From: Lytechinus pictus
Lineage: Eukaryota
Direction of reading: 5' to 3'
DNA: 64,000 bases
Assembly: GCF_037042905.1 (NCBI RefSeq)
Contig: NC_087250.1
Span: 12,836,001-12,900,000 of the forward strand
The notes beneath the pieces are model-generated. The model saw nothing but the letters and a program-made list of their open reading frames with translations. It was not told where the DNA came from and did not search any database. The translations under genes were made by a program, and so were the position numbers. The stretch's first letter is position 1; each line of letters opens with the position of its first letter. Below, one piece after another: positions 22,620 through 59,700 of this stretch.

Positions 22620-22694
22620 GTAATGCTAGGTTCACACAGCTTTTCTGTGGGCTTGATTAAAAAGTATAAACAATTTTATGAAAATTTTACTATA

Positions 22695-24297
22695 CAGTGC
22701 GTCCCAGAAAAAACGAAACCGAGATTAAGCGATGATTTATCGAAACTTAATCACAAATACAATAGACAAATGACCTACCAATGTAAAGCTTAGGATCTCC
22801 AGACTCCTCTTTCATCTCATATTACTTAGATTATTCCCCATTCACGCATGAATGAGCAAAAACAATTTGAAGAAAGGATATCAAAAACTCATTTGGCGGG
22901 GGGTATCTGAATTTCAAAAAGAAAATCACATACCTAAAAAGTTCAATATCTGCTCTTTTATTTGATACCTTAATCACAAAAAATGGTCAAGAAGTCAAAA
23001 AGTTATGTTCCCTCGAAACAATGCTTGTATTTCCATAATTTCATTAAATAAACGTGTTTTCACCGGTTCCCCACAGAAGCTATCGCATGGTTAACAAAAG
23101 ACTTAATGCATGGCTGATCGTCAACAAAACGGAGTTCGAGTGAGTTTAAACGCTAGCCCGTAAAACCTTTTCATTTTATGAAATTATTGAAATTCAAGCC
23201 TTATTTCAAATAGCCAGAACTTTCTTATTTCTTGATCCTTTTCTGTAATTGAGGTATCAAATTAAAGAGCAGATATTGAACTTTTTAACCCTAATTCTCC
23301 GGGGGGGGGGGGGGGGGGGCCATTATGGCCCCCCCCCTCGACAATTTTCGCGATATATTTGCTGCGCAAAATTTTTTGACCTCGCCGCTCACTGACTTTT
23401 TACTTTTAAGTCTCGCGCAAATTTTGAGACCAAATTTGTGACGCCCAGGTACGCGGTTACGACATTACGCAACATTATGTAAGTGCATGTCAGACCCAAA
23501 ATTGCTCATAAACGTGATTTCATGTACAAATCCAATGCAAATTGTGTATTTGGCCAAAATTCATAAATGTATCATTATTTCTACTTTTACTGATTAAACT
23601 TAATCAATTTTGCCTTGTTTATGATCAGAATTAAGTCTGGAACGATTTCCATCGAAAAAACAATAAAAAACAAAAAGTAAAAATACAAGGAAATACATAA
23701 GAAATTTAAAAAACAATAAAATACATAAGAAATCGGTCTTGGTACCAGAATTTTTTTCATTCACAATTGTTAGGAACGCTGTAAAGAATATTTTTACAAA
23801 AAATAGCATTCTAGGAGCTTTATTTAGTGAATCAGAGCAAAAAGTATGATTTCATGAATAAATTAGCATAATTAATTCATATAAAATAAAAATATATGAA
23901 TTCAGTGAAATTTACCTATGCAACTGCATAGATTACGTCATTCTCTACCATCATGCAAATTTTCGTTGTGATCGCGCAATCCATGGCTGAGATCTTAAGG
24001 GGGGGCCATAATGGCCCCCCCCGGGAATGACAAGAATCAAAATACCCCGGGAGATTGAGGGTTAAAGATGTAGTTTTCTTTTTGAAACCCAGATACAGCC
24101 CGCCAAATGACTTTTTGGTATCCCCTATTCAAATTGTTTTTGCTCACTCATGCGTGAATGAGAAATAATCTAAGTAATTTCAGATGAAAGAGGAGATTCT
24201 AAGCTTTACAATGGTAGGTCATTTGTCTATTGTATAGTTGATTAAGTTATGATAAATCATTGATAAATCTCGGTTTCGTTTTTTGTGGGACGCACTG
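22695..24297. mobile_element. Tc1/mariner-type non-autonomous element (TA TSD) in a Siah intron
   Basis: ta|CAGTGCGTCCCA..AAAAAACGAAACCGAGA...TCTCGGTTTCGTTTTTTGTGGGACGCACTG|ta. Confidence 0.85.
23289..24061. mobile_element. piggyBac-like MITE nested in the Tc1-type element
   Basis: ttaa|CCCT...AGGG|ttaa; related in opposite orientation to 26176-26956. Confidence 0.8.
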
Positions 24298-24504
24298 TAC
24301 AGTCTTGTAGTTTACATCCGGCTCTACACGCGTGCAAATTTTCGCGGTGATTATGCAATCAGCTGCAGAGATCTGAAGGGGGGTCATTGACCCCCTCCCC
24401 CAGTATATCCTGGTCTGAAATAGCCCAGTTAAATTAGGGTTAACTCTTTTAGCACCTGTCTAGGAGACGGGTGAATGATTTTCTCCATCCTCTCTTTCCA
24501 ACAG

Positions 24505-24591
24505 GTGAAGATGTTGTATTCCTAGCTACAGACATCAATCTTCCTGGTGCTGTGGACTGGGTCATGATACAACGCTGCTTCGGTTATCACT
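24505..24591 (+). other. Partial tandem duplicate of the next Siah exon, with its own acceptor
   Basis: tttccaacag|GTGAAGATGTTGTATTCCTAGCTACAGAC... encodes [28 protein letters not shown], a near copy of the exon starting at 24644. Confidence 0.9.
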
Positions 24592-24643
24592 GCAAGCTTA
24601 ATTATACCTGTGCATTATTTTCTTTATTCTTTCTCCCATTCAG

Positions 24644-24836
24644 GTGAAGATATTGTATTCCTAGCTACAGACATCAATCTTCCTGGTGCTGTGGACTGGG
24701 TCATGATGCAAAGCTGCTTCGGCCATCACTTTATGCTCGTCCTGGAGAAGCAAGAGAAGTACGATGGACTTCAACAATTCTTCGCTATCGTCCAACTGAT
24801 TGGATCAAGAAAACAAGCCGAAAATTTTGCTTATAG
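24644..24836 (+). CDS. SIAH1: Siah coding exon (substrate-binding domain, first part)
   Basis: [65 protein letters not shown]; cag| acceptor and AG|gtttgt donor. Confidence 0.97.
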
Positions 24837-25380
24837 GTTTGTAATTGCTTATTCATATATGGCACTTCAGAGCTCAGCAAGATTTTTTTGTGTACAAAGC
24901 CATTGATGAAACGAAATGTTCAGAGGGATTTTTTTTTTTTGGGGGGGGGGGCATGACAAAATTCACAGCACAGCAATTTATTTATGCACAGCAATTTATT
25001 TATGCACAGCAATTTATTCATTTGTAGAAGTTCTTAGTATGATGTTATTTGTCCAGAGGTGTACAGGCAGACTCATAATGTCACATGACATGATGTCAGA
25101 GGGGACTCATTTTGACATCATATGACATGAGCCATGACATCATAATACAATTATTTTGATCATGAAAATATGGACAATATTTTACCTCCAGTGGGAGATT
25201 ATTAAAAACACTCTCAGGGGCTACTTTTTTAGTTTTTAGCTCTCCAGTCAAAGTTTGCTACAGTGTAGATTATAATCCAGTAAGAATGTCAGGGGTTCTT
25301 TTTTATTTTTTAGGTTTTTTATTTTTATTTATTTTTTTTTTGGGGGGGGGGCATATTGGGGACAATTATCTGTTACTTAA

Positions 25381-33200: not shown

Positions 33201-34011
33201 TGCAATGCACTTATGCATGCTGCTAAGGGCTGTTTTTGCGCTCATTTAATGATTCCCAAAGGGCATTCTTCCCCCCGACGCAATGTAGTTTAATAAGCCT
33301 GTGCTGACTGCTGGCTTAAGAGGGCGTGCTTTACCAAACTTCACACCCAGCCATTCCATGCAACCATAGGATTTTACCATAACATATGAAATATGATACT
33401 TGGGAGGCATTTGGATTTACTTAGGGAAACACAATGGTTGTTGTCAAATGATATGCATGAATAGATAATATTTTGATGAGAAAAAAGGGAAATATTGAAA
33501 AAAATATAACATGGAAAAGGAAAGTTCTATCCCTGAAAAGCAGATCATTAAGATTAAGATACTCGATATATAAATCTCAAATTGCTCAATTAGAGAGTGA
33601 AACTTCAAACAGTGTCATATTTTAGCGTTCTTGTGTGTAGGAACAATTGAAGGAGTTAAACTGACCCTACGTCACTATTCGGGTTTCAGCGAATTTTCTC
33701 ATTTCTAATTTTTGTCATTTGATTAGTCCAAGATATGAATAGAAGCTCTTTATCGCATGAAGTTACCAATGCTTTTTTGACATTACAGAATACCCTGCAT
33801 ATCTGTATCTTCGATTTTATATGCCCTTTAGTTTGTTGTTCAAGTGACATTCTTCATGAAATGCAATGTAGTATATATGATAGTGTTGTACATAGCACGC
33901 CGTTTATGTAAGTATTGTATAATATATTGTAGGAAAATACATGTTGATTTTCCAAAAAAAATGATTACATTGGAATCGATTCAATGTGGTTTGGAATGAC
34001 CTTTGGTCACA

Positions 34012-34017
34012 AATAAA
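34012..34017 (+). terminator. Candidate distal polyadenylation signal of Siah
   Basis: AATAAA followed ~15-40 nt later by a T/GT-rich tract (tttttgagttgtttgagtgtttg). Confidence 0.45.
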
Positions 34018-35337
34018 ACACAATATTGAATTTTTTGAGTTGTTTGAGTGTTTGATTGCGTTCGGCGCACATGATTTTTCTAGAGAAATTCACGTTTGTG
34101 TGTGTGTGATGATGTTCCTTTATCATAAGAGTCCGGGGGTGGGGAAGGGTATGGTTGTGAGAATATACACTACCAGTCACAATTCTTTGACTCACTATTA
34201 CCTGTTTCAGCCAGAGACCAATAGAATCAGTGGACCAAATCTATTGTACTCTGGTTGAAACGGGTAATAGTGATTTAAAGAATGGTAACTGGTACTGTAC
34301 ATCATCAAGGATATAAATAACGTCATAATCTCATAGCGCCCTCCCTCAGAGGATATAGGAATACGCGAAGAGTTGTCAAAGAAGCGCCAGCTGCTGATCA
34401 TCCACACATGCAAGGCAATGGCTTCAGCCTCTAAGATGGCGGCGCAATGACATCAATGCATAAGGTCAATCAGTAAGAATTCCAAGCAAGAGGTGCATTT
34501 GGAACACTTCTAACACAACCCAGGGTGTCTGGATTATTTGAAAGGTAACAAGTGTGGGTAATTGTTTGGGTGCCCGAAGGAAAAAAAAGGAAGGAATAAA
34601 GACGAGGAGGATAAGGTGTAGGCCTTTTATTATCGACTGTCATCTAATTAATTTATACTCTAGAAAGTTATCAAGACATAAAAAGGACCGGATGTGACAA
34701 CACTACACATGCTATAAAAAAGTGTTAAGAGTAATTCTTATTCTTATTATAATTGCACTTCAACCATGATTTTGTTACTTAATCCGGCAGTGAGCATATT
34801 TAAGATTTCGATAATAATTCAGTGATTACATTACTAAACTTAGAAAATGTGGTCCCTTGCCATTTTGACAAGCTGCGCTTAACCGTTGTGACCGGAACAT
34901 TCTCTTCAAAGCATCTCCATTGTCACACACTGGCCCAAGATTCTTTCAAGGTACTAACTGTACTGAAATAAAACCCCTGTGTGTTCACAGTGTGGACCAC
35001 AATGTGAAATCATTATTATGCTTAAATGTAAAAATGAATCATATTTGCACATAATCCATTATGTGAACACACTGTGAGCACATGAACATACTGTGAACAC
35101 ACAGTGAATGTACTGTGAACATACCATGGACAAACTTATGAGGCGCCGAATGTACCATTATTATATAGAACAATTATTTGTTATATAATCATTATTTATT
35201 AAATAATAACTATTATTTATATATAATTTACATTTTATTTGTAAATAACTACTATTATATAAAATATCATTTCTAATTATTTATATATAATTCCAAGTAA
35301 TACTTCATTATTTGTAAATAATAATAGTTCGACATTC

Positions 35338-35945
35338 CATTATTTATAAATAATGATTATTTGTTTTTCATTATTTATAAATAATGATTATTTGTTTTTC
35401 ATTATTTATAAATAATGATTATTTGTTTTTCATTATTTATGAATAATGATTATTTGTTTTTCATTATTTATAAATAATGATTATTTGTTTTTCATTATTT
35501 ATAAATAATGGAAAACTCAACAAATTATTTATAAATAATGAAAAACAAATAATCATTATTTATAAATAATGAAAAACAAATAATCATTATTTGTAAATAA
35601 TGAAAACGTCTACTTCATTATTTATAAATAATTTTTTCGAGTGCACCATTATTCTCATTATTTATAAATAATCATTATTTAATGTTCGAGTTTTCCATTA
35701 TTTATAAATAAAGATTATTTGTTAAATAATGAAATATCTACTTCATTATTTATAAATAATAATTTTGTTTCAATATCCCATTATTTATAAATAATCATTA
35801 TTTATAAACAATTTTTACAGTTTGCCATTATATACAAATAATCATTATTTATATACAAATAACCATTATTTATTAAATAATGCCATTATTTATTAAATAA
35901 TGCCATTATTTATTAAATAATGCCATTATTTATTAAATAATGGAA
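35338..35945. repeat. AT-rich repeats in the left fold-back arm (31-bp unit with an 18-bp palindrome)
   Basis: cattatttataaataatgattatttgttttt repeated, followed by (tgccattatttattaaataa)n; mirrored at ~49515-50170. Confidence 0.9.
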
Positions 35946-36539
35946 AACTCGCTATAACATGCAAATGTGGGACCGCCCATGATATGAATATTCATGATGC
36001 GATTTCCTTTTTCGTGATTTTTCTTCACAAATTTTTGTCCATTTCCTCTTCATAATGACATTTCTTGAAGCAATTTTCTAGGGATATGGTCTGATTGTAA
36101 TATTCTTCATTTTCTATATAACTTCGTCTTCGTAGAAATATCAAAAAGTGTAATTTTATACGATTTTTCCTACAGTTCACAATCCCCATAGGCGCGCGTG
36201 TACGGTAGGGACAACCGGTGAATCGACGGAGTGCTCTTCATCGAAATACTACGTTGGTTGGTCCCCGGAAGTGGCGGGCGGAATTTAGCCCGAATCCTCG
36301 ATGGAAGTCGATCAAGTGCATATGAGCTGAGAGAGTGAAATATCAGTGTACTTGTACAGGCCCTTCTACTTTTTATAAATATTTCTTGTTGCTTTTTTTG
36401 TTAAGTTAATTTTTCCTGGTGTAGAAATAAGTTTCAGTTCTAATAATGCACTTCAAATACATTTTGGAGTGTCTGTTTGAGGCGTTTGGGGCGATTTCAC
36501 CCTGGCCCCCCCTTACAAAAAATTCCTGCAGTACTTTAG

Positions 36540-37620
36540 TGGTACTCTGTTGTACCTGTGTGATACTTCTGTCATACACGACGGTACCTCAGAATTACCA
36601 CAGGACTTCTGTGGTATCACTCTGTGATAGTTCTGTCATACTTCTGTGGTACAGGAAAATATGAAAATTTCATGCAATACCTTAATGGTACTCTGTCGTA
36701 CCTGTGTGATACTTCTGTTGTACAAAACTGTATATAGAATTACAACAGGACTTCTGTGGTATCACTCTGTGATAGTTCTGTCATACTTCTGTGGTACAGG
36801 AAAATATGAAAATTTCATGCAATACCTTAATGGTACTCTGTCGTACCTGTGTGATACTGCTGTTGTACAAAACTGTATATAGAATTACAACAGGACTTCT
36901 GTGGTATCACTCTGTGATAGTTCTGTCATACTTCTGTGGTACATAAAAATATGAAAATTTCATGCAATACCTTAATGGTACTCTGTCGTACCTGTGTGAT
37001 ACTTCTGTTGTACAAAACTGTATAAGGAATTACTACAGGACTCCTGATCTACTTCTGTGGTACATAAAAATATGAAAATTTCATGCAATACCTTAATGGT
37101 ACTCTGTCGTACCTGTGTAATACTTCTGTTGTACATAACTGTATACAATATCACTCTGTGATAGTTATGTCGTACTTCTGTTGTACATGAAAATTCTAAA
37201 ATATCCTGCAGTACTTCTATGACAACCCTGCGATACTTCTGTTGTATATGAACATTTTTTAAATTTCCTGCAGTACTCCTATTACTAAGCACTTCTATGG
37301 AAACCCTGTGATACTTCTGTGGTACATGAACATTTTGAAATTTCCTGCAGTACTCGATCCTATTAAAGACACTTCTATGAAAACCCTGTGATACTTCTGT
37401 GGTAAATGAAAATTTTGAAATTTCCTGCAGGACTCAATATAGGCACTTCTAAAATTCTATGGCAACCCCAGTGCTATACTTTCAAAATTTCCTGCGGTAC
37501 TTCTCATGCAGCCACCCCAGAAATATGACTGAAACTGTATCACAGACGCTACTGGTGTATTTTCTGTGGTACAGTACATGAAAAAATTAGTTTCCTTCAG
37601 TACTTGTATGGAAGCCCTGT
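36540..37620. repeat. Left subterminal repeats (145-bp unit decaying into shorter units)
   Basis: gtggtaca..aaaatatgaaaatttcatgcaatacc at 36646, 36791, 36936 and 37057; core motif ctgtg[a/g]tac. Confidence 0.9.
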
Positions 37621-40600
37621 TTGTACCACAGACTAATTTTTTTATTTCCAGTGAGGGATTTATCTTTTTTTTCAGTTTCGGGAGAGGTCAGTAGCGTATT
37701 GAGTCTTATATTTTTAGAAGGCCATATGGCTTAAAAGGGCACCATTCATTTTAAAAAGTACAATTTTTTATATGAAAATTTAATTTTGTGATAGCTAGAT
37801 TGTGACATATAGGCCCTATTTCAAAATTATATTTCACCCTGTCCCATTGTGTAGGTCTATATCAGCGAGGGGGGGGGGGTTATGCCTACTGAGACTCAGA
37901 GGTTTTAAGTTTGATAGCTTCTATTTCTACGAGAAAGGGTACTATACGTACTAGATCAAAACTAGGAGCAAAGCGCGAACTGAAAAATGCGAAAAATTAT
38001 TGACCCCAAAATGGGCAACTTATATTTTGAGGACTATTGTTCGTTTTCAGGGTTATTTCTTTTTCATGCGCTCTTTTAAATTTCAATTATCATTTTTGTT
38101 TTGTTTGTTCGCCACTTATTTTTCATAAAAAACAGGATGAATAATAAAAAAATGACTATATTTAAAAGGGTACGTGTTGAAATATACAGGACACACCTAA
38201 CACTCTTAGAGCTTAATGGTTGTGAGGAAGCCGGGTTGAATTTCAAAGAGATATTGTAATGAATAAAAATATAAGCATGAACGTATTATTCTACTTCATC
38301 CATCTCTTTCTAACAATACAAGAAAATAATTGAAGGGGAGGTCAACGCTAGAGATAATCAATAAATAGAGTAAAATTCACAAAACAAAATGCTTAAAATT
38401 TATTCAAAATCGGATGACAAATAACGAAGTTAAGTTGAATTTTAAGGATTTGCAATATTCCCATGAAACAGTTTTATTTAGGCATGTCTCATGAATATTC
38501 ATTAGGTGGGCTGATGATGTCATATCCCATGTTCTTTTGTACAATATATGAAATTAGATTTATTCAACATATTTCTACCAAGAACTTAAACAATTGGAAT
38601 GACGACTAATTAACCGCATTAGTTATTTAATGCAGCAACTTTACAATGGGGACACATTATTTACACATGTATTGAAAAAATAGATAATCATAATTTCATA
38701 TCTAACATTAAAAAAGAAAAATGGGAATGTCACATCATCAACCCACCAAATGAATATTCATGACGATGTGCACACTATCTGTTTTCACAAAATATTGATA
38801 AACAATTAACATAAGAAAGTTCAGCGTTGAATGTTGATTAAAAAATAAATCTCAGTTAAAATGCTATCTAAGATTTTGTTTTACACGTTTCATAACCAAG
38901 TTTTAATGCGATTCTGGCCCCTTAAAGTTTTTATTGCGAGAAAATACATTTTTCCAAGTTTCCCATCTATTTTTTTATTTATTTTTTTTTAGTAAAAAGG
39001 ACCTATTTTCTTACAAATATATTATTATAAATAAAATTACTTCAATATTTGTTCTCCTATTCACAATATTTTTTACAGGTGGAATAGGATAAACTAAAAA
39101 TAGGATATTTAATTTCCATTTTAAGGCCTATTTTTTGCTTTATATCCCCGGTTTATATCTTTGCCACCTTGCAATATGTTAGCCAGGCTGGTTTATATCT
39201 ATTTCTTTTTAAATCAAATAAATTTGGATATTTTCAATCTATTTTTATGATGCGAAGCTATATATAGTTTGTAAATATGTTTTTTAATTGCAAGAACAAT
39301 CTTGTATCTCTGTTCACATATGATGGCAGTTTATTTTGCTTCTTTTTTTCTAATTTGTATGAAGTTTGTATCTATATATTTTCAAACTATTTTCCATCCT
39401 TAAAGTGTCACAACCGATCATATTATTTTTTACCTCGTTGGCAAAGTTATTTTTTCTTATGTTTCGCTTCAAAATGGTATCTTTATATTTGCTTGTCTTG
39501 CTCCTCCACCCCTTATCAAAATACCCTGCCGGCACTTGATCTAAGATTATTTTCTTTTACTACTTGAACCTTATAAAGGGATCTTTCCTTCGATCGCAAG
39601 AAAGGATAAAATGTGTGTTTTTGAAAAGAAATAAAATTAAAAATACATAGGATTGGAGCTGTGATTTTCCTCATTGCTTTCTTTGTCATCCTACTTGCAT
39701 ACTGGTAGGCCTATATAACATATTTTCAGTAAAATTGTGAGACATGTTTTTAAATCCTATCCTTATATTAAAAAAAAGAATAAAGAGAAAGAAAAAAATT
39801 AAAAGACATAGAAAAGAAAAAGAAAGGAAGAAGAAATAAATATTTGAATTTTACTTTATTCAATTCCTTTACGTTAATAATATGATATATAAATGATGGC
39901 GAAAATAGTCAAATTGTCTGGTTTCCAAGTAAAAAGTAAGACCCCCCCCCCCCCCCTCCGAGCTCAAACGCACGGACTGTACCGTATACGTGTTTCCGGT
40001 TCCGCCATTTGAAAAAAAACGTTCGTAACTGCTCAGCTGAACCCGAAGCTTGATGAAGAAGGCCGTCAATATTTCAACAAAAACTAACAGAATATGGATC
40101 AGATTCGGACAACGACTTCTTAAGACATTCACACAACAGGCTAAACAGTAAGTTAGATCCATTTTTCGTAGTTTGGCGCGGCATGCACTTAAATTTCTTC
40201 GACTTTTTAATCATTACCGTACGGCCACTGCACTGCCGTTGTTCCCGATCGCTTATCGGGTGGGGGCTGATCTGCGGTGTGCGCGGCCGGGGACGGCCAA
40301 CGGCTGGCTAAGTTAGTAGTATATTGATGGCGGCGGTGAGGATGTTTGTATTGTCATGATTGTAGCCAGGTCAGGGGTGGGCGCTAATGCAGTTTCGCAC
40401 CGGCCGATTAATACCAGCATACCTCATCACCAATATTTGTTCCCAAATGTCATGACAAGTCTCTCAGTCACATTTGAAGTCAATATATCCACCACTTTTC
40501 AAAATATCGTGATCGGGAATGGCTGTAGGCCTAGCCAGGCGGCTTCTAGAGAGTGAAAATCATTTACTAACGTAACTTCGTAAGGTCACTCTCATATGAA

Positions 40601-41541
40601 GCCAGGGATCCTTTCTCATATACCCACACAGAGGAAGCCAAAACTTGAAACTTTCACCCCCGGCCCCGAGATTTCTACTTTCCTTCTAAAAGATCTAGCC
40701 TAACGTTAGACCTAAATCATGTACATGGGATAAAACTTAATTTCCAACATTTCTACGCTCTCGTCGTTATTTTTGAAGAAGAAATTCATTCCAAAAAATG
40801 CGAAAAATATCATGATTAGACGGAAGAGACTTGCCCGATGTTTACGCCGCCATCTATGTGAGAAACTTCATGTTGGCTCTAAATCATCAATTTTGAGACG
40901 GATAGAGGCATGGAGAAGAACTGAAACTTTGTGTGCAGGAAGAATATTAGTTTTAATTTTTTTAAAGAGCGTGATGTTGCATGAATTTGATATCCCCCCC
41001 CCCCCCCATAAGATCCCACTTTTTGTCACTCGGAATATCAGATCGACAGATCCAGTTCACGGTCTCAAAGTTTGGGTAGGTGGAGCGTAGTGTAGCAATA
41101 GTGAAGTGGAGTGGAGCCTGCACAAACTTCACTCGAGGTAGGCAATCCCACAAATTTAAAAGAGGTTTCTATAAAATCAAGTCCGGCCTTCTATGAACAT
41201 GACAAACTTACGAAAAGATGTGAAGTCAATTCACCCTAAATATCATCAATATCCCTCAAATAGCTTCATTTAAGCACTAATTTCTCTTCCGGTTGATAAA
41301 ATATGGATCCGTCTTTAATTTCCAAAATTGTTCGTCTAACTAGCTAAAGGACGCATGTTTTATCTACATATTAAAGACACTACATAGAAAAGACTAGGCA
41401 CAAAGACTATTATACATGTAAATCGATGCAAAGCATTACGCGATGTCGGCAAAGTGCCCAATCTTCTTATTGTAAAGACTTTAGCGACAATAACAGACTG
41501 TGAGTAAGGTTAAAATGCTCCTCTACTTTTAATGTTTTCAT

Positions 41542-42528
41542 TAGTGCTGTTGTCGGGAACAAAAATCCATGTCGACATGTCGCTTAAAAATTAATCCCGA
41601 CATCGACAATGTCGACATGAAAAAGGGACCGTAATTTAGCCTGGGCTCCCTAACATAAAAAAAAAGCATTCGATCGTGGAACAACACTCTCAATCAAATA
41701 TATTCACCTTGACACGAGTGATATCCCCACACTAGATCTATATAATACAGGCTCAGTTCGGGAATTGAGCTTCCAAAATCACCGATTTAATCCACATTTT
41801 TTTTCTGGAGAATCAAGTTTTTGTACCAGGATCCGGTTTCGAAAGCATTGCTCAATAACACTCGTAGCCAATTTGAGAATCACCAATTACAACAGTGATC
41901 ATTGCTGCAAACGCAAGCTCCTCAATTTGACAATGAAAAGTAATGAAAATCGACCGATAATTTCAGTATCACTTCCGCGGCGATCCGTGCAACGATCTCC
42001 AAACGAATGAAGGGAAGTTTTCTGTGACTTCGTGATATGAAGTAAGCGCTCAATTGCGGCAGTCACAACTTTGACAAAAACACGTGTTCGCTGCTGCTCA
42101 CGTTTATGTGAAAAGTAATGCATTGAGGAGCAACGTATTATCAAGCACGGTGAATAGCGCGCGATGGGTACATATTTCCGTGGATGGGTACGGTGAATGC
42201 TACTCTCGCTATAACGGGATATCGAGGGCGGCTCGATCGGGCAGGCCGGCCCTGCACTGACGTATTTCTACTGCCGCACAGCTCGCAGATATTCTTTTTT
42301 CATTTAATGCGCTGCTAAGCTGAATAAACCTTTTAATCGCGCCAATTACTGTGGATAAATGCTTCTAACTTTTCAGCTAATCTTTACACTCGTGATTGTA
42401 GGCTAGACCCCTTTTTATTTTATGTTTACATGTCGATGTGGGTGCGTGCATGTCGACATGTCGGAATTTTGAAAATCCTTCGTATGTCGACATCAATGTC
42501 GATATGAGGCCTATCGACAACAGCACTA
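41542..42528. mobile_element. hAT-type non-autonomous element (8-bp TSD)
   Basis: gttttcat|TAGTGCTGTTGTCG...CGACAACAGCACTA|gttttcat; subterminal atgtcgacat repeats. Confidence 0.88.
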
Positions 42529-43985
42529 GTTTTCATTGATTTTATGTTGAATATTATTAAAGAATATGACTCTTTGCACCTGAATTGTAACACTGAAATA
42601 TGGAAATGAAGAAGTTTTATCATGTATTTTTATTACATCATGTATTTGTATTAACCTGCAAATAAAATTTTACTATGTCACTCAAATTCATTTCATTTCA
42701 TTAAAGATTCAAAGAGGGATCTCTGGATGATCGAGCAGCAAGTCCAGCATTATGTGGGAAAGATACTACAGGTGTACACAGAAAAGGCCATGTTCTTGTA
42801 CAAGACACGGTTGGAGTTCATAAAAGGTGATTATATAGGCATTCACTTCAGTAGATATTATAATTACAAAATTAAGCAGATTGTATTCATGCAGTGGCAT
42901 ACAGTGTAATCCTTGTTAGAAGATGTAGATTTATTCTTCATTGTTTTATTAAAGAGTTTCAATATGTGCTTATGACAATTTGTTTGCATTATAAATTGTT
43001 TGTCACTCTTCGGCTTAGTTTGCTTTTATAAGCAAGAATATGCTAAGAGAGATAGCCGCAAGGACCTCATTATCCGATAGATATGTACTTGTGAAAAGAG
43101 ATCTAGATGGGGGCAAAACACCTTATTTCTTGTATTTTTATGTTGTTCATGTTATCGTAATGGTATGTGTTTTTTTTTCTACAGATTAAGCTGCCTCGTG
43201 CTATACAGACTTGGATAAAAACAAGCTGTCCAATGAATGGTGACTACTCAAGAGGAGCCAGAAAGTCAACTAAAGCCAGGGTATTTTGGGAGTTGATATG
43301 GCCGGGGAAGGGGGGAGGGGGGGTTTCCAGGGCCCCCCCCTTCCTTGAGATCTTGACCGCACAATCGTGTCTAACATTGGCACATGGGTTGTCTAGGGCA
43401 TAATTTACAAAATTAAATTGTAAATTATTTCACGCAAATTGTTAGTAAGTGATAATACTAATTTATGCGTAATTAGAATACAAAATCATACTTTTTCCTC
43501 TATTGCATTGACTTTGTACACAAAATCACGTTTTTGAGCAATTTTTGGTATGACATGTACTTACATAATGTCACGTTATTACAGAACCACGTACCGGGTG
43601 ACACAAGATTGGTCTCAAAAGATGCACAAGACTAGAAAGAGGCATGTTTTAAAAAAATTGTGCGACAGCATGGTCGCAAAATTTTTGGAAGGGGGGGGGG
43701 GTCAAATTGGTCCAATTTAACTAAGGGTTAATAACTGGGAGGCTGTTAGCTGCCTTTTTACTTTCAAGTCTTGCACATCTTTTGAGACCAAATTTGTGAT
43801 GCCTGGGTACGCTGTTCCGAAATTTCGCAACATTTTTATGTATTAATCCAACACAAATACTGTTTCTTGCTAAAAATTCACAATTAGTATACCAGTAATA
43901 TACATTTATCAAGTCAAATTATTTAATTACATTTATAATCATAAAAGCTTTGATAAAGTATAAAAAAAAAACAAAGAGTTGTATG

Positions 43986-44879
43986 TAGGCCTGGGACTTT
44001 CGGGTTTTTTCTCTTCGGGTACCCGTGGTAATTTTCGGGTGGGTACCTGAAAATCATGTCACTTGAAATATGACTGGTGGAAAAACCCCATAGGTGACGT
44101 CATCAAGCCAATGCGATGCAAGCCAATTTATGAATGAAAATATAGTAAGCATGCGCATTGCAAGCCTCCCGTGCCCCACGCAGTATTCCATCGAAACAAG
44201 TTTCAATACTCTGTCACCTCGTACCAAAATCGACCTAGAATTCCACTTTCCTATATATCATATGAATTATAAAAGGTTTTCTCACCGATACTGCACAGGT
44301 AAGCAAATTTTTATTCTTGCTTTTCCGTCAAAATCTTACGAAGTAGCATCGATATTACATCGTGTTCGTGAGTTTGTATCGCTACGTGAACAAAGTCAAT
44401 TGATTTCCGGGTTTCGGAGCGTCAAATGCGCCAGCCAATCACGATCGTGTTCCCATTTTCGGTTTATGATGAACTAAAAATGGTAACAAGAACGTGATTG
44501 GCTGGTGCTTCGTAGGTCGATTTTGGTATGAGGTGACAGAGTATTGCAGACTTGTTTTGACGTAATACTGCGTGGGGCTGAGGCTTGCAATGCGCATGCT
44601 TACTATATTTTCATTCATAAATTGGTTTGCGTCGCAGTGGCTGGATGACGTCACTGCGCTGCAAAAGAAACATGGCGATGATTGAACGATCTCGGTCACA
44701 TATTTAGAGGGTAATTGGTGAAATTCAAAATGAGGCTTGTGTACTTTTGTAATGAGTTACAATCATGTCTTACACTACGCAATACAAATCAAATACATGT
44801 ACATTATACTGGTGAGCAATTTTCGGGTATCGGGTATTGATTTTTCTACTCGGGTACCCGGGTTTTAGTCCCAGCCCTA
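43986..44879. mobile_element. hAT-type non-autonomous element (8-bp TSD)
   Basis: gttgtatg|TAGGCCTGGGACT...AGTCCCAGCCCTA|gttgtatg; subterminal tcgggt repeats; internal inverted repeat ~44094-44238 / ~44513-44654. Confidence 0.88.
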
Positions 44880-46789
44880 GTTGTATGAAAATTTTCAAAA
44901 ATAATGAAAGGTAAAAGAAAACAAGATTACAATGTCCATTGCAAGGGGGCTAGTCTAGCTATTCAGGATAATTGGGATTTTATTCAGTTTTTAATTGACA
45001 TAACATTATGACAAGATCCCTCCATTTAGTGTATAAACAGCACATGGCCATGATTGAAATTCATATAACATTAAAGTATGCAAACCAGGCAGCTACATGT
45101 ACATGTAGGACTCACTGCTTGTCAATTCTATTGTCTGCCAGGGTCAAGTGACATACAGTGCACATGTATAACATGTGTGAAAGTACATAAGAAAATCAGC
45201 TTTTTATTTTTGTACTGTAACATTGGGTGAACTGGTGATCACTTTGGATATGATGCTCTTCATATTGGTTTATTTTATGTATATGAATTTTTGGATAATC
45301 ATTAAGAATTAAAGCCATTTACTTAATATATGGAAGCATAAGCCCATCAAAGAACAGAATTATGTCATGTACAGCTAATTCATTTTGCGTGATATTACAA
45401 TTGTAATTGTTTACTTGAGCAAGTAATTTGAATTGCTGCATGACCTAAACAATGACATGTTCCAATTCGAATAGTAACATGACCTAAAGAAGAGTTACTC
45501 CACCTCGATTGAGAGTGCTTATGTTGAATAATTGATGTTGCTACTTCAAATAATTGAGGTCAATCAAATTGGTCATAATTATTCAAGTCAATTTTGAGCT
45601 ATATGTCATAATTAATTAGGTCATATACTAATTGAAATTACTAAATGACTCGAGTAGGTATGAATTCACATTGCCACATGACCTTAATTATTTTATGTAG
45701 CAACATCAAGTATTGAACGTCATTTAGTTATCAATTATGACATGTAGCAAATCAAATTACATGCCGCAATTTCGTGTTTATGATGGGCTCATGCTTACAT
45801 TCATATATAACCCTTCAATACGTAGTTGGAGCAATTCTTAGACAAGAAGACTGTGTAAAATGATATGCCTATTCAATGTCAAAAAGGTTAATGTCTCAAT
45901 AGATTTGATCTACGTTTTGGCAAAGTAATGTTATGTTCATATTTTTTCTAACCTATGGTGAACGTTCTAAATCATGTGAAATTCATTCAAAAATATCTTT
46001 CAGTATTTATGGACTTAAGTGAATTCTGAGCAAAATGAAGTGATTATGATTACGTTCATGTACTTTAAGTTTATACTGGTGATCAACACATCATAATTTC
46101 ATCCCTTACTGTATGTGCACCATGCATTATCTGTACATGCAGAAGTGGTTATCCATTGTTTCATAACATGGTTGAGTAAAGGATGTTCTGCTTTTAGTAT
46201 TAAGCCAATCGGGTGTTGACAAGAAGGGGAAAATGCAATTGCTCAGCTATTACAGTTTTTTTTGCAACCATAATACTGGTTAAGCCTTGGTTACATTCGC
46301 CGGCTCGTGGCCTTACGTCGAGTCAAAATTAACAGTCTTAATCATCCTTGTACCAGCTACTACCAGCTACACGTGGGTGGTTTGTACAGGAATACCTAAA
46401 ACTGCTGATTTTGTCTCGACGTAAGGCAACCGGTCAAGGAATGTGACCAAGGTATTAATAATAATCGCTTATTGTTGTGTTAGAGGGAAGGATTCTGGGT
46501 CGAATCTAGCTTTCTTTATGTGATCTCAAAATGGCAGCAATGTATGAATAGTGAAAGTAGTTCATGTGGCATCTCAATGTTCATGGATATAAATCTTTGT
46601 ACATGTCTTATCCTAAAGATGAAATGTTACTGCATTATTCTAGCAGTCATTTATGATATCAAAGATGTTCTATACTGTGCATAGTACAGCTCATACATAA
46701 TAAAGGTATGTGAATATGCTTTTAACGTCTTTGCAAATTTGTGGGTTTTTTCACGCCTCTTTTCATTAGTCAAGATGTCAAAGTTGTTG

Positions 46790-47800
46790 TGCTGGATCAC
46801 AGGAAATTCTTACAAACTACTACGCCTAACAAACCAGTGCAGGACGGTGTCGTGAGAAAATCGCACAGACTACTACAGGACAATACCATAGGATTGTCAC
46901 AGGAAATCAACAAGAATACCCCTGCAGGATTACCACAGTAAAGTATCACAAGAAGGCTACAGGATGAGACCAATAATGCCACAGAAGATATCAAAGATCA
47001 GTATCACAGGAATACCACAGGACAGTACTGCAGGAATTGTCCTGCGGTAAGGTCTCTTGGTATTCCTGCAGTACTGTCCTGTAGTACTGTTCTGTAGTAC
47101 TTTCCTGTGATACTGGTCTGCGGAATTCCTAAAGTACTGTCCTGTCATACTGTCCTGTGATACTATTTATCACCACAGGATAGTATCACAGGACAGTACT
47201 ACAGGAATACCAGACCAGTATCACAGGACAGTACTACAGGAATACGAGACCAGTATCACAGGACAGTACTACAGGAATACCAGACCAGTATCACAGGACA
47301 GTACTACAGGAATACCAGACCAGTATCACAGGACAGTACTACAGGAATACCAGACCAGTATCACAGGACAGTACTACAGGACACAGTACCAGAAGCCTGC
47401 GGTACTCCTGTAGTACTGTCCTGCGATACTGTTCTGTAGTACTTCCCTGTGATACTGGTCTGTGGTATTCCTGTAGTACTGTCCTGTCATACTGTCCTGT
47501 CATACTATCCTGTCATACTGTCCTGTCATACTATCATGTGATACTATCCTGTGATACTATCCTGTGATACTGTCCTGTAGTACTAATAGTAGTGTGGTAG
47601 TGGTTGTAGCGGTTGTAGCGGTTGTGGTGATCGTGTCCTGTCATACTTCCTGCCATACTTATGCGGTTATTACCACAGGAAGTATCACAGGACACGGACC
47701 TGTTGTACTCCTGTTGTACATTTCTGTAGTACCGTCCCAAATTACGTGCACGTAATTCCTGCAGTACTTTCCTGCGATACTTCCTGCAGTACATATCACA
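46790..47800. repeat. Right subterminal repeats including a 35-bp tandem array
   Basis: cagtatcacaggacagtactacaggaataccagac repeated ~47181-47385, flanked by inverted copies of the same motif. Confidence 0.9.
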
Positions 47801-50370
47801 GAGTACTACAGGAATTTTTTGTAAGGGCCAAAATGCTCGCAACGACAATACGGGGGCATGATGACCCCTAAATTTTAAAAACTTATTTTTCTATTGAAAA
47901 TTATCACAAAATTCACCAGAAGTGTGCACGAAAGCCTTCGTATTTCACTTTTAAAACTCCGAAAAGTGCCCAAATGACAAGCTTGGTCGCTTCGCTGTGT
48001 CGCTTTCAACTTGAGAACGTTTACGCGTCTGCTCCCCCCCCCCCCTCCTCCGAAAGAAATTCTGTATACGGCCATGCTCTAAAGAGCCTGGCACATTGAT
48101 TTATGTATACTTACATTTTCATTATTTTTATCTCATTATCAACATGGCCTTACGCATAATTTTTTCCAGGGGGGCCGGGGCCGGAGCATGACGCGCGTAA
48201 ACTTTCTCAAAAAAATCTTGAAAGCGAGACAGCCACGGGACCAAGCCCAAATGACAAGCTTTGTCGCTTCGCTGTCTCGCTTTCAACTTGAGAACGTTTA
48301 CACGCGTCTGCCCCCACCCCCCGAAAGAAATTCTGTGAACAGCCATGCTCAAAAGAGCATATGGCACATTGATTTATATGTACTTTTCATTTTCATTATT
48401 TTTATCACATTATCATCATGGCCTTACACAGAATTTTTACCGGGGGGGGGGGGGGGGGGGCAGCTAGGACGCGCGTAAAGTTTCTCAAAAAAATCTTGAA
48501 AGCGAGACAGCGACGCGACCAAGCTCAAATGACAAGCTTGGTCGCTTCGCTTTCTCAAGATTTTTATGAGAAAGTTTACGCGCGTCCTGCTCCCCCCACC
48601 CCCCCCCCCGGAAAAAATTCTGCGTAAGGCCATGATGATAATGAGATAAAAATAATGAAAATGAAGTATACATAAATCAATGTGCCAGGCTCTTTAGAGC
48701 ATGGCCGTATACAGAATTTCTTTCGGAGGAGGGGGGGGGGGGAAGCAGACGCGTAAACGTTCTCAAGTTGAAAGCGACACAGCGAAGCGACCAAGCTTGT
48801 CATTTGGGCACTTTTTGGAGTTTTAAAAGTGAAATACGAAGGCTTTCGTGCACACTTTTGGTGAATTTTGTGATAATTTTCAATAGAAAAATAAGTTTTT
48901 AAAAAATTAGGGGTCATCATGCCCCCGTATTGTCATTGCGAGCATTTTGGGGCCAGGGTGAAATCGCCCCAAACGCCTCAAACAGACACTCCAAAATGTA
49001 TTTGAAGTGCATTATTAGAACTGAAACTTATTTCTACACCAGGAAAAATTAACTTAACAAAAAAAGCAACAAGAAATATTTATAAAAAGTAGAAGGGCCT
49101 GTACAAGTACACTGATATTTCACTCTCTCAGCTCATATGCACTTGATCGACTTCCATCGAGGATTCGGGCTAAATTCCGCCCGCCACTTCCGGGGACCAA
49201 CCAACGTAGTATTTCGATGAAGAGCACTCCGTCGATTCACCGGTTGTCCCTACCGTACACGCGCGCCTATGGGGATTGTGAACTGTAGGAAAAATCGTAT
49301 AAAATTACACTTTTTGATATTTCTACGAAGACGAAGTTATATAGAAAATGAAGAATATTACAATCAGACCATATCCCTAGAAAATTGCTTCAAGAAATGT
49401 CATTATGAAGAGGAAATGGACAAAAATTTGTGAAGAAAAATCACGAAAAAGGAAATCGCATCATGAATATTCATATCATGGGCGGTCCCACATTTGCATG
49501 TTATAGCGAGTTTTCCATTATTTAATAAATAATGGCATTATTTAATAAATAATGGCATTATTTAATAAATAATGGCATTATTTAATAAATAATGGTTATT
49601 TGAATATAAATAATGATTATTTGTATATAATGGCAAACTGTAAAAATTGTTTATAAATAATGATTATTTATAAATAATGGGATATTGAAACAAAATTATT
49701 ATTTATAAATAATGAAGTAGATATTTCATTATTTAACAAATAATCTTTATTTATAAATAATGGAAAACTCGAACATTAAATAATGATTATTTATAAATAA
49801 TGAGAATAATGGTGCACTCGAAAAAATTATTTATAAATAATGAAGTAGACGTTTTCATTATTTAACAAATTATAATTATTTATAAATAATGGAAAACTCA
49901 ACAAATTATTTATAAATAATGAAAAACAAATAATCATTATTTATAAATAATGAAAAACAAATAATCATTATTTGTAAATAATGAAAAACAAATAATCATT
50001 ATTTATAAATAATGAAAAACAAATAATCATTATTTATAAATAATGAAAAACAAATAATCATTATTTATAAATAATGAAAAACAAATAATCATTATTTATA
50101 AATAATGAAAAACAAATAATCATTATTCATAAATAATGAAAAACAAATAATCATTATTTATAAATAATGGAATGTCGAACTATTATTATTTACAAATAAT
50201 GAAGTATTACTTGGAATTATATATAAATAATTAGAAATGATATTTTATATAATAGTAGTTATTTACAAATAAAATGTAAATTATATATAAATAATAGTTA
50301 TTATTTAATAAATAATGATTATATAACAAATAATTGTTCTATATAATATTGGTACATTCGGCGCCTCATA

Positions 50371-52420
50371 CAAACTGTGACCACAGCCTACAAACTTTGA
50401 GCACACCATGAACATACTGTAAACACACCATTAACACACCGTGAACCGACAGTGTACATACTGTGAACACACATTGAATGTACTGTGAACATACCATCGA
50501 CAAACTGTGACCACACCATGACCACAGCCTAAAAACTTTGAGCACACCATGAACGTACTGTAAACACACCATTAACACACCATGAACCGACTGTGTATAT
50601 ACTGTGAACACACAGTGAATGTACTGTGAACATACCATAGACAAACTGTGACTACAACATGACCACAGCCTAAAAACTTTGAGCACACCATGAACATATT
50701 GTAAACACACCATTAACACACCGTGAACCGACTGTGATCATACTGTGAACACACAGTGAATGTACTGTGAACATACCATGGACAAACTATGACCACCATG
50801 ACCACAGCCTAAAAACTGAGCACACCATGAACATATTGTAAACACACCATTAACACACCGTGAACCGACTGTGTACATACTGTGAACACACAGTGAATGT
50901 ACTGTGAACATACCATAGACAAACTGTGACCATCCCATGACCACAGCTTAAAAACTTTGAGCACACCATGAACATACTGTAAACACCATTAACACACCGT
51001 GAACCGACTGTGTAAATACTGTGAAAACACAGTGAATGTACTGTGAACATACCATAGACAAACTGTGACCACAGCCTAAAAACTTTGAGCACACCATGAA
51101 CATACTGTAAACACACCATTAACACACCGTGAACCGACTGTGTGCATACTGTGAACACACAGTGAATGTACTGTGAGCATACCATAGACAAACTGTGACC
51201 ACACCATGACGACAGCCTAAAAACTTTGAGCATACCATGAACATACTGTAAACACACTGTGAACACACAGTGGATGTACTGTGAACATACCATAGACAAA
51301 CTGTGACCACACCATGACCACAGCCTAAAAACTTTGAGCACACCATGAACATACTGTAAACACACCACTAACATACCGTGAACCGACTGAACATTCTGTG
51401 AACACACAGTGAATGTACTGTGAACATACCATGGACAAACTGACCACACCATGACCACAGCCTAAAAATTTTGAGCACACCATGAACATCCTGTAAACAT
51501 ACCGTGAACCGACTGTGTACATACTGTGAACACACAGTGAATGTACTGTGAACATACCATGGACAAACTGACCACACCATGACCACAGCCTAAAAACTTT
51601 GAGCACACCATGAACATATTGTAAACACACCATAAACACCGTGAACCGACTGTGAACATACTGTGAACACACAGTGAATGTACTGTGAACATTCCCGCAG
51701 TATGTTCACAGTGTGGAACACACCCCTGTAAACACACTGTGGACACACCGTGAACACACCAACATATTGAGAACACACCATGACCATTTAAGAATTCCCG
51801 CAGTGTGGAACACACCCCTATAAACACACTGTGGACACACCGTGAACACACCAACATATTGAGAACACACCATGACCATTTAAGAATTCCCACAGTGTGG
51901 AACACACCCCTGTAAACACACTGCAAACACACCGTGAACACACTAACATATTTAGAACACACCTTGACCATTTAACAATTCCCACAGTGCGGAACACACC
52001 CCTGTAATCACACTGAAAACACACCGTGAACACACTAACATATTTAGAACACACCTTGACCATTTAACAATTCCCACAGTGTGGAACACACCCCTGTAAA
52101 CACACTGCAAACACACCGTGAACACACTAATATATTGAGAACACACCATGACCATTTAAGAATTCCCACAATGAAGAACACACCCCTGTAAACACACTGT
52201 AAACACACTAACATATTGAGAACACACCATGACCATTTAAGAATTCCCACAGTGTGGAACACAGCCCTGTAAACACACTGCAAACACATCGTGAACACAC
52301 TAACATATTGAGAACACACCATGACCATTTAAGAATTCCCACAGTGTGGAACACACTGTGAAAATACTGCGAACACACCATGAACACACTAACATATCGA
52401 GAACACACCATGACCATTTG
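50371..52420. repeat. Satellite-like array (~140-bp units switching to ~75-bp units near 51700)
   Basis: actgtgaacacacagtgaatgtactgtgaacataccat[a/g]gacaaactgtgacc repeated; the start of the same array lies at ~34975-35136. Confidence 0.92.
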
Positions 52421-53470
52421 TGCATATCGTATGGTAAAAAAACAAAACAATGAAATTTCATTTTCTCAGAAAATTAAAAATAGTTTATACTGTACCTTTA
52501 GTATATCAATAGTCAAATCATTTCACACCCGTTCCTAAAAAGTAAACAAACTAACTCATCACGAACAATTACAAAATTGAAATCTATATGCATTTTATAT
52601 TACATAAAATATGGGGCAGCTGCTCGTTTATGACGTCACAAATAAAACATCAAATGTTAATAACTTTCTTAATCCTTAAATGGATTTTCCTCAAACCTTA
52701 ATTTTTCTATTTATTTTTTTTAATTATTATTTTCACAGAAACATTTCTTCTGGGTAACCTTCCTCTTTAAGGGGTTCTCCAGGCTGAAAAGAAAATAACA
52801 GATAGAATAAAATCAAACAAACACCACACTGATATTTTCATTAAAATCTGACTAGAAATAATAAAGTTACGACACTTTGAAATTTCTCACTGTTTCAGTG
52901 AAACGGTTCTATGCTTGTCAACATGAATTCACAATTTAAACGAGATGTCCTGGCATGCCATTGCAGAATTTATTATTCATGTTCAAGTTTAAGAAGAAAA
53001 ATATGCAACAAATATAAAATATATGTATTGAAGATAGAAATATTCAAGATATCAAAACATATATTAAATATAAAGGCATGATGATATATGCAAGATACAA
53101 CAAATATATGCCAGGCACGAAATATTTGCCAGGCTTAAGATACATTATGTGCCAGGCACAAAATATATGCAAGACCCCAGATATGTAAGGAACAAAATAT
53201 TTGCAAGGTTTTTTTTTAGTTCGTGTTCTAGATGGTTTTTTTAGTAAATTTAGCTCGATCGGTTACCACCTTGACAACTTTGTGCACTTTTAATGAGCAT
53301 GTAATGAGCATATTTTCTAATATGCTACTAATCTTAAATGAAAAAAAAAATGAAAACATAAATAATACAATTTTCAGAGGGTTCCTGAGAAGAGGAATGC
53401 ATTCATGACCTTAGTTTTCATTTTAAGTAACGTAATCATCATAATAAGCGTAATTAGCATAATAAGCTAA

Positions 53471-56759: not shown

Positions 56760-59700
56760 CTAAGGTTGAATGCGCAGAGCATACAGCTTCTCACAAGCTG
56801 GTAATGAATTTTCAATCACCTCTTCCAAATGGGAAGGGATTTCAACGTCGTCCTCCGTGAGGTCGGGCGCTTTGCCGAACCCTAACCCTTTCAGTGCATT
56901 GGAAAAAAAAGAAGAAGCAAACTTTGATTTATCTGCGCATGCGCAATGAGGCCTGCGTCTGCACAATGCCAGTTAAGCTGGCTCCCGGAAACACTCTCCC
57001 ATTCTAGCATCTTGGGCGTGTATTCGATGCCCATGGCGTCGCAGTATTTCGGAAGCAGCTTCTCCGGCTGGCTGACCAGGTCGTCGGCATCGATGATGGG
57101 AGGTGCCCGTTGATCAAGCGCGGATTCGACGTAGCGGTAAAAACGTTCCAGATCGTCATAAATATTTACGTAAGGGTTTTCATCAACAAGATTCTGCTCA
57201 AGAGAGACCGATCTCATATATCTGTACATCGATCGGAAGGCCTTTTTTGGATGTCGAATGAGAAAGGAGTGCTTGAAGTTTCGTTCGACGACACTGAAGT
57301 CATCCCTAATCCCTTCTACCATACACTTGGCGAATAGGACTTTAGCCCCGGGGTATTCGTCGTTGAGAAGGCCACTGATGTAACTGAAGGTGTACTTATC
57401 ATCAAACATGCTTTCTGTTGAAAGAGCATTTCAAACTAAATTAAAACTAATTGATCGAATAGCTCCACGCATGGGCGGAAATCCCAGGGGGAGGGGACAG
57501 AGGGGACGCGTCCCCCTACCAAAAATAGTAGGGGGACACAATATTAAATGTCCCCCTACTATTTTTGGTCTTTTATGATTGAGAAAGATACATCATTCAC
57601 AATCGAAATAATACATGTATTTTAGACTAAATGACCTTACATTTTGGGGGAAAACCGGTTTTTTTTGGTTGTCATTTTTTTTTTTGGGGGGGGTGGTAAA
57701 AATGACCGTACATTTTTGGTGATAGCCTTTTTTTATTTATTTTTGCTTGTCAAAGTTTCCAGCCTCTGCCCCCCCCCCTACTTTTGGGGACAGATTTCCG
57801 CCCATGGCTCCAGGATATTGCTAAAACAAGAAATGCATTTTGGTCCAATTTTAGTTGGCTGATTTATTATTTTGGATTACAGGCCTAAATCTATTTTCAC
57901 GAAATATTTAATTTAATGTAATACCGTCGTAAATAAGCGTTCGCGTTCTCCAGCGAAAGGTAGGAAATGTCACACAGTCAACGCATAATGTCGCAATTGC
58001 GACATTATGCGTCGCTGCGACAATCCCCACCTTTCGCTGTGCAGCTCAGACAGACTTTACGACGGTATAATGATTTTGGAAGAGACCTTTGGGCCCGTCG
58101 TCATGGTCGTAAAACACTGTCCTGCAATGCAATTTGTGTAACATGAGATTTTTTCGTTTCGCATCTGCAACGGAAACATTCAATCTGCGTTTCGTGTGCA
58201 AAATTCTGGTTGCTACTATGGTAACAACGATATATCCGATTTTGGACAACTTTCCAGAGGTCGAGAGGCCGCCCGGGGGAGGGGCACTTCAATTGACGAG
58301 TGGATACCAGGCGCGACCACGCGTAAAAAGGGAAAGAGTGGGCAAGTACGTTACGTGTAGACCTATGTAACGTTATAAGGGTGTCAAAAACGATGTTTAA
58401 AATACAAAAAGGGATATATTTCCAATACTTGTAGGGTTTCACAAGCCAAATACTTGTTAAGGGATGCATTTTCATAATCTGGAAAAGACTTGCTTCCCTT
58501 GTATAGGTGCATGCTTTTGGAAACCCCATGGTCGCGCTTGCTATATCTACTCGTCAATCATAATAGAAGTGCCCCCCCGGGAATTTGAATCTAATCCCCC
58601 ATTTCGGGGGAAAGTAAAACATAATGCCCATTACATTGTGTGCTAGAGGCATATCGTTTGTGTAGGAGGAGCAAGCAAAATAAAAAAACACACGCAAAAT
58701 CGGATGGTTTTCAGACGGATAGGCCTATTGCATATGCTGTGTACATATCAACGCATGCGAAATGGTTTAGCTGGAGAGGTGATCTGACCCATGGAATCAA
58801 TTGCCAGTGATCCACCAATAATCAACATTAGATGCAACAGCGGTTCGATGGACTGTAATGATTTATATCTAAGTCTGAATTCAGTAAGTTTTCCTCACTC
58901 AATATGTACTCGATTTGTTTGAAAAACCACTTTGTTATCCATGTCATAATCTACGTTTCGCATGTCTCCAGCCAGCTGCCATATAGTCATGATAGTACAG
59001 CACCGCCGTGAGCTCAGGCGGGCATATGCTATGATGACCAGTCGTACATGCATGAGAGCGGGATCAGTTTAACAATTTGGAATGGCATGCCTGGTGTCGC
59101 ATGAAAGAATTTTGCACACGAAAAGCAGATCTATAGGGCCTGTAACACAAAGCTTAGCAATGATTGTAGAACTGTTATCTACGTTCTATTTTATTGACTA
59201 TAATGTAAATCAATCTTAAAATCGAGTCTATGATTAATAGTTAAGTTTTGTGTAACCGGACCCTAATGTCGCGTCCCCGAGGTTTGCGAAAACTCGCTAT
59301 TATCGGTTGTAACAGGCTTATTCATTCATTTTTTTCTTTCTTTATTTATTTATTCGTTTCTGAATGTTATGACAATGTACATAGTGTGACCATCACAAAA
59401 TTGAATACATTAAATTTTACATAATAATAATGTATAATTATGATAATTTTTTATTATACCATGGTTGCAGACATGCAGTGGTATGACAAAATAAGCAGAT
59501 GCTTGAGCTGTTGTCACACCTTTGGATATATGAAATACATACATAAATATAAAAAAATACTAAAAAGTCAAAACTAACGATTACACAACAGAAAAAGGCA
59601 TTAAACGTGCTGCACAGTGCGCTTTCGCTTTGTATGCGGGCAACCGGAATTTTACAGTGTGTTAACGTGTAAAGTGGTTCTTTTAACTGAAGTTCGACGT

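Follow-up and report, generated by a model that had tools for sequence, protein, structure and literature searches.

How does a long palindrome without a recognizable gene come to move as a DNA transposon, and what keeps its two arms alike? Both questions are raised by a locus of the sea urchin Lytechinus pictus, in a stretch of 64,000 nucleotides (contig NC_087250.1, positions 12,836,001 to 12,900,000 of the forward strand) that is referred to below as the window; coordinates are those of the window, and strands are given where one applies. The window is repeat-rich, with ~36% G+C. At 35137..50370 it holds an element with the ends TATG..CATA that measures 15,234 bp as it lies and 3,914 bp without a nested insert. 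We conclude that this is a real, well-preserved, non-autonomous fold-back transposon, probably driven by a transposase of the IS3EU/GingerRoot type.

Ends, target site and host satellite

The first letters of the element, from 35137 on, read TATGAGGCGCC, and its last letters, up to 50370, read GGCGCCTCATA, the reverse complement of the start. It is flanked directly on either side by CAAACT (35131..35136 and 50371..50376), a 6-bp target site duplication (TSD). To the left lies a remnant of a satellite unit (35062..35136, forward strand) with 0-2 differences in 47 bp against nine right-hand units, and to the right the host satellite itself (50377..52419, forward strand), a 141-bp array followed by a 92-bp array. 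Because the satellite units carry CAAACT once, the duplication could be tested against paralogous empty sites: the word is present a single time in 9/9 equivalent downstream units, and is followed by GTGAC, as in the right flank of the element, in six of the nine. Across the two ends of the element a single satellite unit is restored and the TSD is exact; a 6-bp flank match has a probability of ~4e-4 by chance, given the local composition. Both the ends and the paralogous units thus agree with the claim of an earlier note, made from the sequence alone, that a TATG..CATA element had duplicated CAAACT in a satellite unit. A search for TAY..RTA termini with a non-palindromic 6-bp TSD and terminal inverted repeats (TIRs) matching at no fewer than 13 of 16 positions returned the fold-back element as its sole result in the window, the tandem domains of the arms excepted.

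Four of the 23 listed sequencing runs (X2, X4, X12 and X15) were assembled onto 34900-35300. A 258-nt contig of X2 aligns with 35137-35300 (164 bp, one difference) and carries 29 unrelated bases, ending in AGTGAA, ahead of 35137. Since this contig shows the same end and boundary beside a different flank, the element belongs to a dispersed family. One contig of X15 begins exactly at 35137, and X12 contains many variants of the element end, mostly at 90-99% identity. Words of the inner arm domain occur in 18 of the 23 listed runs (8 studies, six organism codes), with half or more of the words in seven runs; low word shares were not taken as evidence. The contigs of X2 and X12 that run on at 35136 continue like the paralogous satellite units, and the contigs of the four runs mapped to 34900-35300 include none with the orthologous empty site. 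Read depths at 35136 are not copy numbers and were left unused.

Two further observations concern these contigs. Alignments of X15 record 15 and X12 record 2 start at 35143 rather than 35137, which hints at subfamilies differing in the first six bases. In runs X12 and X15, a repeat of very high abundance, with loose ends of the CACTGTT type, matches the segment 34979-35120, which comprises the satellite remnant and the preceding 30 bp; the host "satellite" of the fold-back element may belong to a dispersed family of elements.

Anatomy of the palindrome

Removal of 36510-47827 together with one CC yields a sequence of 3,914 bp that aligns end to end with its own reverse complement (91.8% over 4,001 columns). 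This bears out the expectation of a palindrome of ~3.9 kb, non-coding as far as the open reading frames scanned (see below) show. The left arm comprises 1,373 bp outside the insert and 418 bp inside it; the right arm comprises 1,836 bp.

The arms are modular, as had been proposed. The outer domain of the left arm (35137..35960, forward strand) is AT-rich and tandemly repeated, with 31-, 128- and 20-bp periods, and is built on an 18-bp palindrome, CATTATTTATAAATAATG. This palindrome is found in 14 copies in the left arm, 15 copies in the right arm and none elsewhere in the window; shuffled sequences give an expectation of 0. At 35494..35605 the left tandem domain carries a local inversion with a short deletion, bounded by two copies of this palindrome; when both arms are read on the same strand, the inverted 112 bp are 100% identical between them. 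The 128-bp higher-order repeat is matched by the state of the right arm, so that of the left is probably derived, judging from the repeat pattern. The inner domain of the left arm (35961..36509, forward strand) is unique. It has a CpG-rich core (36180-36330), and its observed/expected CpG ratio is 1.08 (1.34 in the core), compared with 0.70 for the window. The core contains at about 36263-36282 what we take to be an ETS-like plus GC-box-like word, and at a guess the domain may be a promoter remnant. Beyond the insert the left arm continues at 47830..47979 (forward strand), and the right arm is uninterrupted (48798..50370, reverse strand).

The centre of the palindrome consists of three modules of 263-269 bp, two of them direct and one inverted. 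Module A (47980..48247, forward strand, 268 bp) is followed by module B (48257..48525, forward strand, 269 bp), a direct copy of A (84.5%) that forms an unpaired extra unit; module C (48535..48797, reverse strand) mirrors A in inverted orientation (91.5% with gaps). The earlier note had described a unit repeated at the centre; the repetition stands, with the correction that each unit is itself palindromic and that the units are spaced by a 9-bp word, CAAATGACA, which lies on both sides of module A. The third occurrence of this word (48526..48534) forms the loop of the central hairpin and is the fold-back axis. Self reverse-complement scores of the modules are 104-138, compared with shuffle maxima of -74 or lower (200 shuffles each); for module A, the score is 104 and the shuffle maximum -107. 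The predicted fold of 48440-48640 has a free energy of -85.6 kcal/mol with DNA parameters. In their structure the modules resemble a small element with TIRs and a 9-bp TSD, similar to a miniature inverted-repeat transposable element (MITE), at which an ancestor may have folded back; such a module is the likely seed of the fold-back.

A palindrome of this kind could also be an artefact assembled from fold-back chimeric reads, and the four runs over 34900-35300 yielded neither a read nor a contig that spans the structure. An artefact of this origin would have to produce two ends that restore a single satellite unit with an exact TSD, and arms that differ in repeat number, in a local inversion and in an 11-kb insert; moreover, the end of the element is confirmed in independent runs. 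We regard this explanation as highly improbable.

A step in arm identity at the nested insert

To compare the arms, the 31-bp tandem patch (35341-35593) was excluded and neighbouring differences were merged by hand. The near identity noted by eye holds outside the insert and fails inside it: two differences were found at 1,120 sites outside, compared, on the inner side, with five listed differences (4 events) over the first 138 bp (Fisher P=0.0017) and about 12 over 380 bp (Fisher P=3e-6), that is, a divergence of 0.2% outside and about 3% inside. The alignment of the arms upheld an end-to-end palindrome, not a uniform identity; it revealed instead a step at the insertion point and the 112-bp inversion in the left arm. 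Going inward along the arms, about 650 bp are free of differences before the first inner one appears, 14 bp beyond the insertion site. When a change point was fitted with 13 inner events, the peak fell 13 bp from this site, where the density is 16 times uniform. With module B as an outgroup, we read private changes on both arms, and three of the differences are CpG-type transitions.

The outer arms are probably kept alike by arm-to-arm copying; in the simplest account, one outer arm was lately copied from the other as far as the heterology. Conversion or recombination among long TIRs has also been proposed for Galileo (PMC3573991). If the outer arms are copied from one another, arm identity cannot date the insertion, and the insert may therefore be older than the jump of the element into the satellite. 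The description of the element as young, which had been based on arm identity, is weakened accordingly by the difference between about 3% in the inner arms and 0.2% in the outer ones.

Some of the evidence weighs against a copying process that stops at the insert. The 95% interval of the change point is wide (arm positions 1011-1431, with the site at 1120), so that a coincidence of the insert with a family-wide identity gradient may also explain the step. The diverged part of the arms belongs to a hairpin of 1 kb that contains G/C runs, and errors of assembly in this hairpin are a plausible, lesser explanation of the inner-arm differences. In the case of a coincidence, the family that entered the satellite was young and already had a consensus with perfect outer but imperfect inner arms, and the inner element landed later, by chance near the drop in identity. 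The intact ends and TSD agree with this, as do the single difference over 164 bp in the X2 contig from another site and the width of the interval. Long TIRs commonly lose identity toward the centre. The abrupt onset of differences just beyond the insertion site, after the long stretch without any, argues the other way, and we roughly estimate at about 5% the chance that a random insertion would fall in the compatible zone. We consider the coincidence a tenable minority explanation.

A different origin of the step would be gap repair, by which young ends were filled in from an older copy elsewhere that already bore the insert. Galileo copies that combine the TIRs of one subfamily with the inside of another have been described (PMC3573991). 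Such a chimera requires switch points at mirror positions on both arms near the insertion site, and we hold it to be improbable.

The insert and its nested elements

The insert (36510..47827; 11,318 bp) has the ends CCCTTAC..GTAAGGG, a 25-bp TIR with 24 matches and a 2-bp TSD, CC; the empty state of its site is given by the uninterrupted right arm, in which CC is not doubled. A set of subterminal motifs occurs 24 and 39 times in two subterminal tandem-repeat regions and is absent from the intervening 9.1 kb. Non-autonomous elements of the CMC group (CACTA/EnSpm-Mirage-Chapaev) are characterized by a 2-bp TSD, a short TIR and many subterminal repeats (PMC6004678), all of which the insert shares. 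It differs from them in its ends, CCC..GGG rather than CAC..GTG (PMC6004678), and in that no transposase was found. As these ends are accompanied by no recognizable transposase (no Pfam match in the open reading frames scanned), the insert is, as far as the tests go, a non-autonomous element that is unrelated to the fold-back and CMC-like at most. Animal EnSpm elements with CCC ends exist.

Two MITEs are nested in the insert, both presumably of the hAT superfamily. The first (41542..42528) has the ends TAGTGCTG..CAGCACTA and an 8-bp TSD, GTTTTCAT; the second (43986..44879) has the ends TAGG..CCTA and an 8-bp TSD, GTTGTATG, and contains a 561-bp palindromic segment (44094-44654). Automatic scans for TIRs with TSDs missed one or both of these MITEs, and both were verified by hand. 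A fifth level of nesting at 44094-44654 was not accepted, no TSD being present at the boundaries tried. The containment that underlies the proposed four-level nest is upheld; the time order at this locus, in which the fold-back preceded the CMC-like element, is less certain, as the 15.2-kb composite may have jumped as one unit and the two MITEs may have arrived as cargo.

Repeat families that recur in the window, at 68-89% identity, have decayed members inside the insert as well. An old family of palindromic, MITE-like elements is represented by a copy in the insert (38358-38803) and by copies at 1140-1736 and 18238-18826, which are 68-83% alike. Palindromic segments in the insert at 44094-44654, 45523-45718 and 46285-46452 have arms 75-93% alike and no clear TSDs. 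Short exon-like pieces with borders that resemble splice sites by eye were observed at 40099-40150, 42714-42771 and 43184-43240; the open reading frames (ORFs) covering them have no Pfam match.

Coding capacity and the candidate transposase

Among the ORFs of at least 45 aa in 35900-49500, 92 of 117 were scanned, the rest being mostly tandem-repeat ORFs or mirrors of those tested, and none matched a Pfam family at the cut-off. No integrase-like DDE ORF was found in the element among these, as expected for a non-autonomous copy, and no Rfam match was obtained in 34000-53000. The terminal 17-mer of the element has 0 matches in viral contigs. The terminal 19-mer has two metagenome matches, which show no further likeness and were rejected as chance.

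IS3EU/GingerRoot is favoured as the superfamily of the element because TA..TA ends with a 6-bp TSD are its published signature, and we judge this assignment likely. In IS3EU families, which are placed together with GingerRoot, the ends are TA..TA and the TSDs usually 6 bp long (PMC10045372). For GingerRoot, TA..TA ends were found in 72/77 copies, TSDs are mostly 6 bp, and TIRs are 100-150 bp long (PMC6839031). Fungal IS3EU termini are TAYGG..CCRTA (PMC12730594). The TAY..RTA motif with a 6-bp TSD, cited in the earlier note for IS3EU, stands as TA..TA with 6 bp; in the literature searched, its exact wording occurs only in this fungal form. One sea-urchin repeat table includes IS3EU (PMC11316814), a group described as largely unexplored (PMC11934779). 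An IS3EU-related element, Styx, has 6-bp TSDs and is mobile even with a broken integrase (PMC10853768). With the published descriptions of IS3EU/GingerRoot, as far as these go, the fold-back element shares TA..TA termini, the 6-bp TSD, a size of several kilobases, the existence of gene-less derivatives and the presence in marine invertebrates.

Other features speak against this assignment. TIRs of about 1.8 kb, which make up nearly the whole element, differ from the 100-150 bp of GingerRoot (PMC6839031). The terminus TATGA agrees with fungal TAYGG in 4/5 letters, the fifth base being A, and the motif is not known for animal families. The absence of a transposase from the element likewise departs from the description of IS3EU/GingerRoot, and no transposase was detected by Pfam in 145 of 180 listed ORFs of the window (92/117 in 35900-49500, 53/63 elsewhere). 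Finally, the superfamily call depends on two short features that are in part common to hAT6.

Transposases of hAT6, or of an unclassified group that also produces 6-bp TSDs, could indeed have moved an element of the same anatomy. Families of hAT with 6-bp TSDs, named hAT6, are known (PMC12730594), and the fold-back element has a TSD of this length; TIR length has been called unreliable for classification (PMC3573991). The hAT-like MITEs of the window likewise start and end with TA. The ends of hAT elements are of the TAG/CAG type, and the third terminal base of the fold-back element is T rather than G. No description of hAT6 ends was found in the literature searched, and TA..TA with 6 bp is a published mark of IS3EU/GingerRoot (PMC10045372, PMC6839031). 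A transposase of this other kind appears to us rather unlikely. Polinton (AG ends) and Ginger2 (TG..CA) do not agree with the termini of the element (PMC6839031).

Proposed origin and maintenance of the fold-back

Taken together, we propose, with somewhat better than even confidence, a non-autonomous fold-back DNA transposon, most likely driven by IS3EU/GingerRoot, that was seeded at a palindromic module and in which re-copying of the arms is blocked by the insert. The following steps would be involved: (i) in an ancestor, DNA synthesis would have turned back on itself at a small, MITE-like palindromic module; (ii) this synthesis would have replaced the right half, any gene included, by a copy of the left half; (iii) the element would move in trans by cut-and-paste, using a transposase with a 6-bp-staggered target cut, most likely of IS3EU/GingerRoot, for which the arrays of the 18-bp palindrome behind each end could serve as extra binding sites, as in Galileo; (iv) the arms would since have been re-copied from one another by arm-to-arm conversion or break repair; and (v) the 11-kb insert would block this re-copying, so that the outer 1.37 kb stays identical and the inner 0.4 kb drifts by about 3%.

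Three results fit this proposal less well. No solo copy of the central module is present in the window; the contigs of X2 do not include the partner flank of the site found in that run, so that the TSD at the present locus is the only one read; and run X4 gave no contig over 34900-35300.

A broader version is offered as a tentative and less probable extension: sea-urchin IS3EU-type elements would become fold-backs via an internal palindromic MITE, their arms would be re-copied from the ends inward, perhaps in the repair of transposase cuts, until heterology is reached, and the 15-kb composite with its cargo would be the jumping unit. If the proposed mechanism is true, near-identical TIR arms are no proof of a recent insertion, since arms can be homogenized, and the locus is a natural experiment that marks the boundary of arm copying. 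The step at the nested insert makes homogenization testable by comparison of interrupted and uninterrupted copies. The relevance is mainly for transposon specialists; no host gene was shown to be affected.

Other features of the window

Exons of a Siah/Sina E3 ligase, encoding the RING, zinc-finger and TRAF-like domains, were found at 19777-24903 (forward strand), with repeats in the introns. The zinc-finger exon is 96% identical to a Diadema antillarum protein, 88% to a sea star protein and at most 84% to the others, among 120 of 335 matches listed. These identities mark the host as a sea urchin. An ORF at 56894-57430 (reverse strand), probably an exon, matches a sulfotransferase domain (PF19798, E 3.7e-6). 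Frameshifted reverse-transcriptase fragments at 62318-63820 (forward strand) probably belong to a long interspersed nuclear element. Pairs of TIRs bordered by 5-bp direct repeats were observed at 11315-12509, 11489-11941 and 22784-24208; they are possibly further nested elements.

Comparison with known fold-back elements

The element has the characteristic features of fold-back transposons: long modular TIRs, a tandem outer domain, a unique inner domain and a non-coding middle. Drosophila FB and Tetris, described in part in PMC4079207, resemble it in their long modular TIRs, non-coding middle and differences in repeat number between arms. Most fold-backs are assigned to Mutator, whose TSDs are 8-11 bp (PMC4079207, PMC6446971). 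Tetris has a TSD of 8-10 bp (PMC4079207), compared with 6 bp and TA..TA in the present element, and a Mutator-type fold-back such as Tetris or FB was rejected on the length of the TSD.

Long TIRs are a convergent trait of several superfamilies (PMC3573991). Galileo, of the P superfamily, has two-TIR and extended-TIR copies; it resembles the element in its non-autonomous copies of long, internally repetitive TIRs and in the growth of TIRs by recruitment of inner sequence (PMC3573991); extra transposase-binding sites have also been proposed for it (PMC4079207). It differs in its superfamily and in its 7-bp TSD, and the parts of the source at hand describe no step in arm identity bounded by an insertion (PMC3573991). 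No paper linking IS3EU to fold-backs was found in the literature searched, Repbase and Dfam lying outside this search.

The sea-urchin TU elements have modular fold-back arms and an 8-bp TSD, a length that, if right, differs from that of the present element; the likeness is one of description. If the proposed assignment is true, the little-studied IS3EU/GingerRoot group joins Mutator and P as a source of fold-back architecture.

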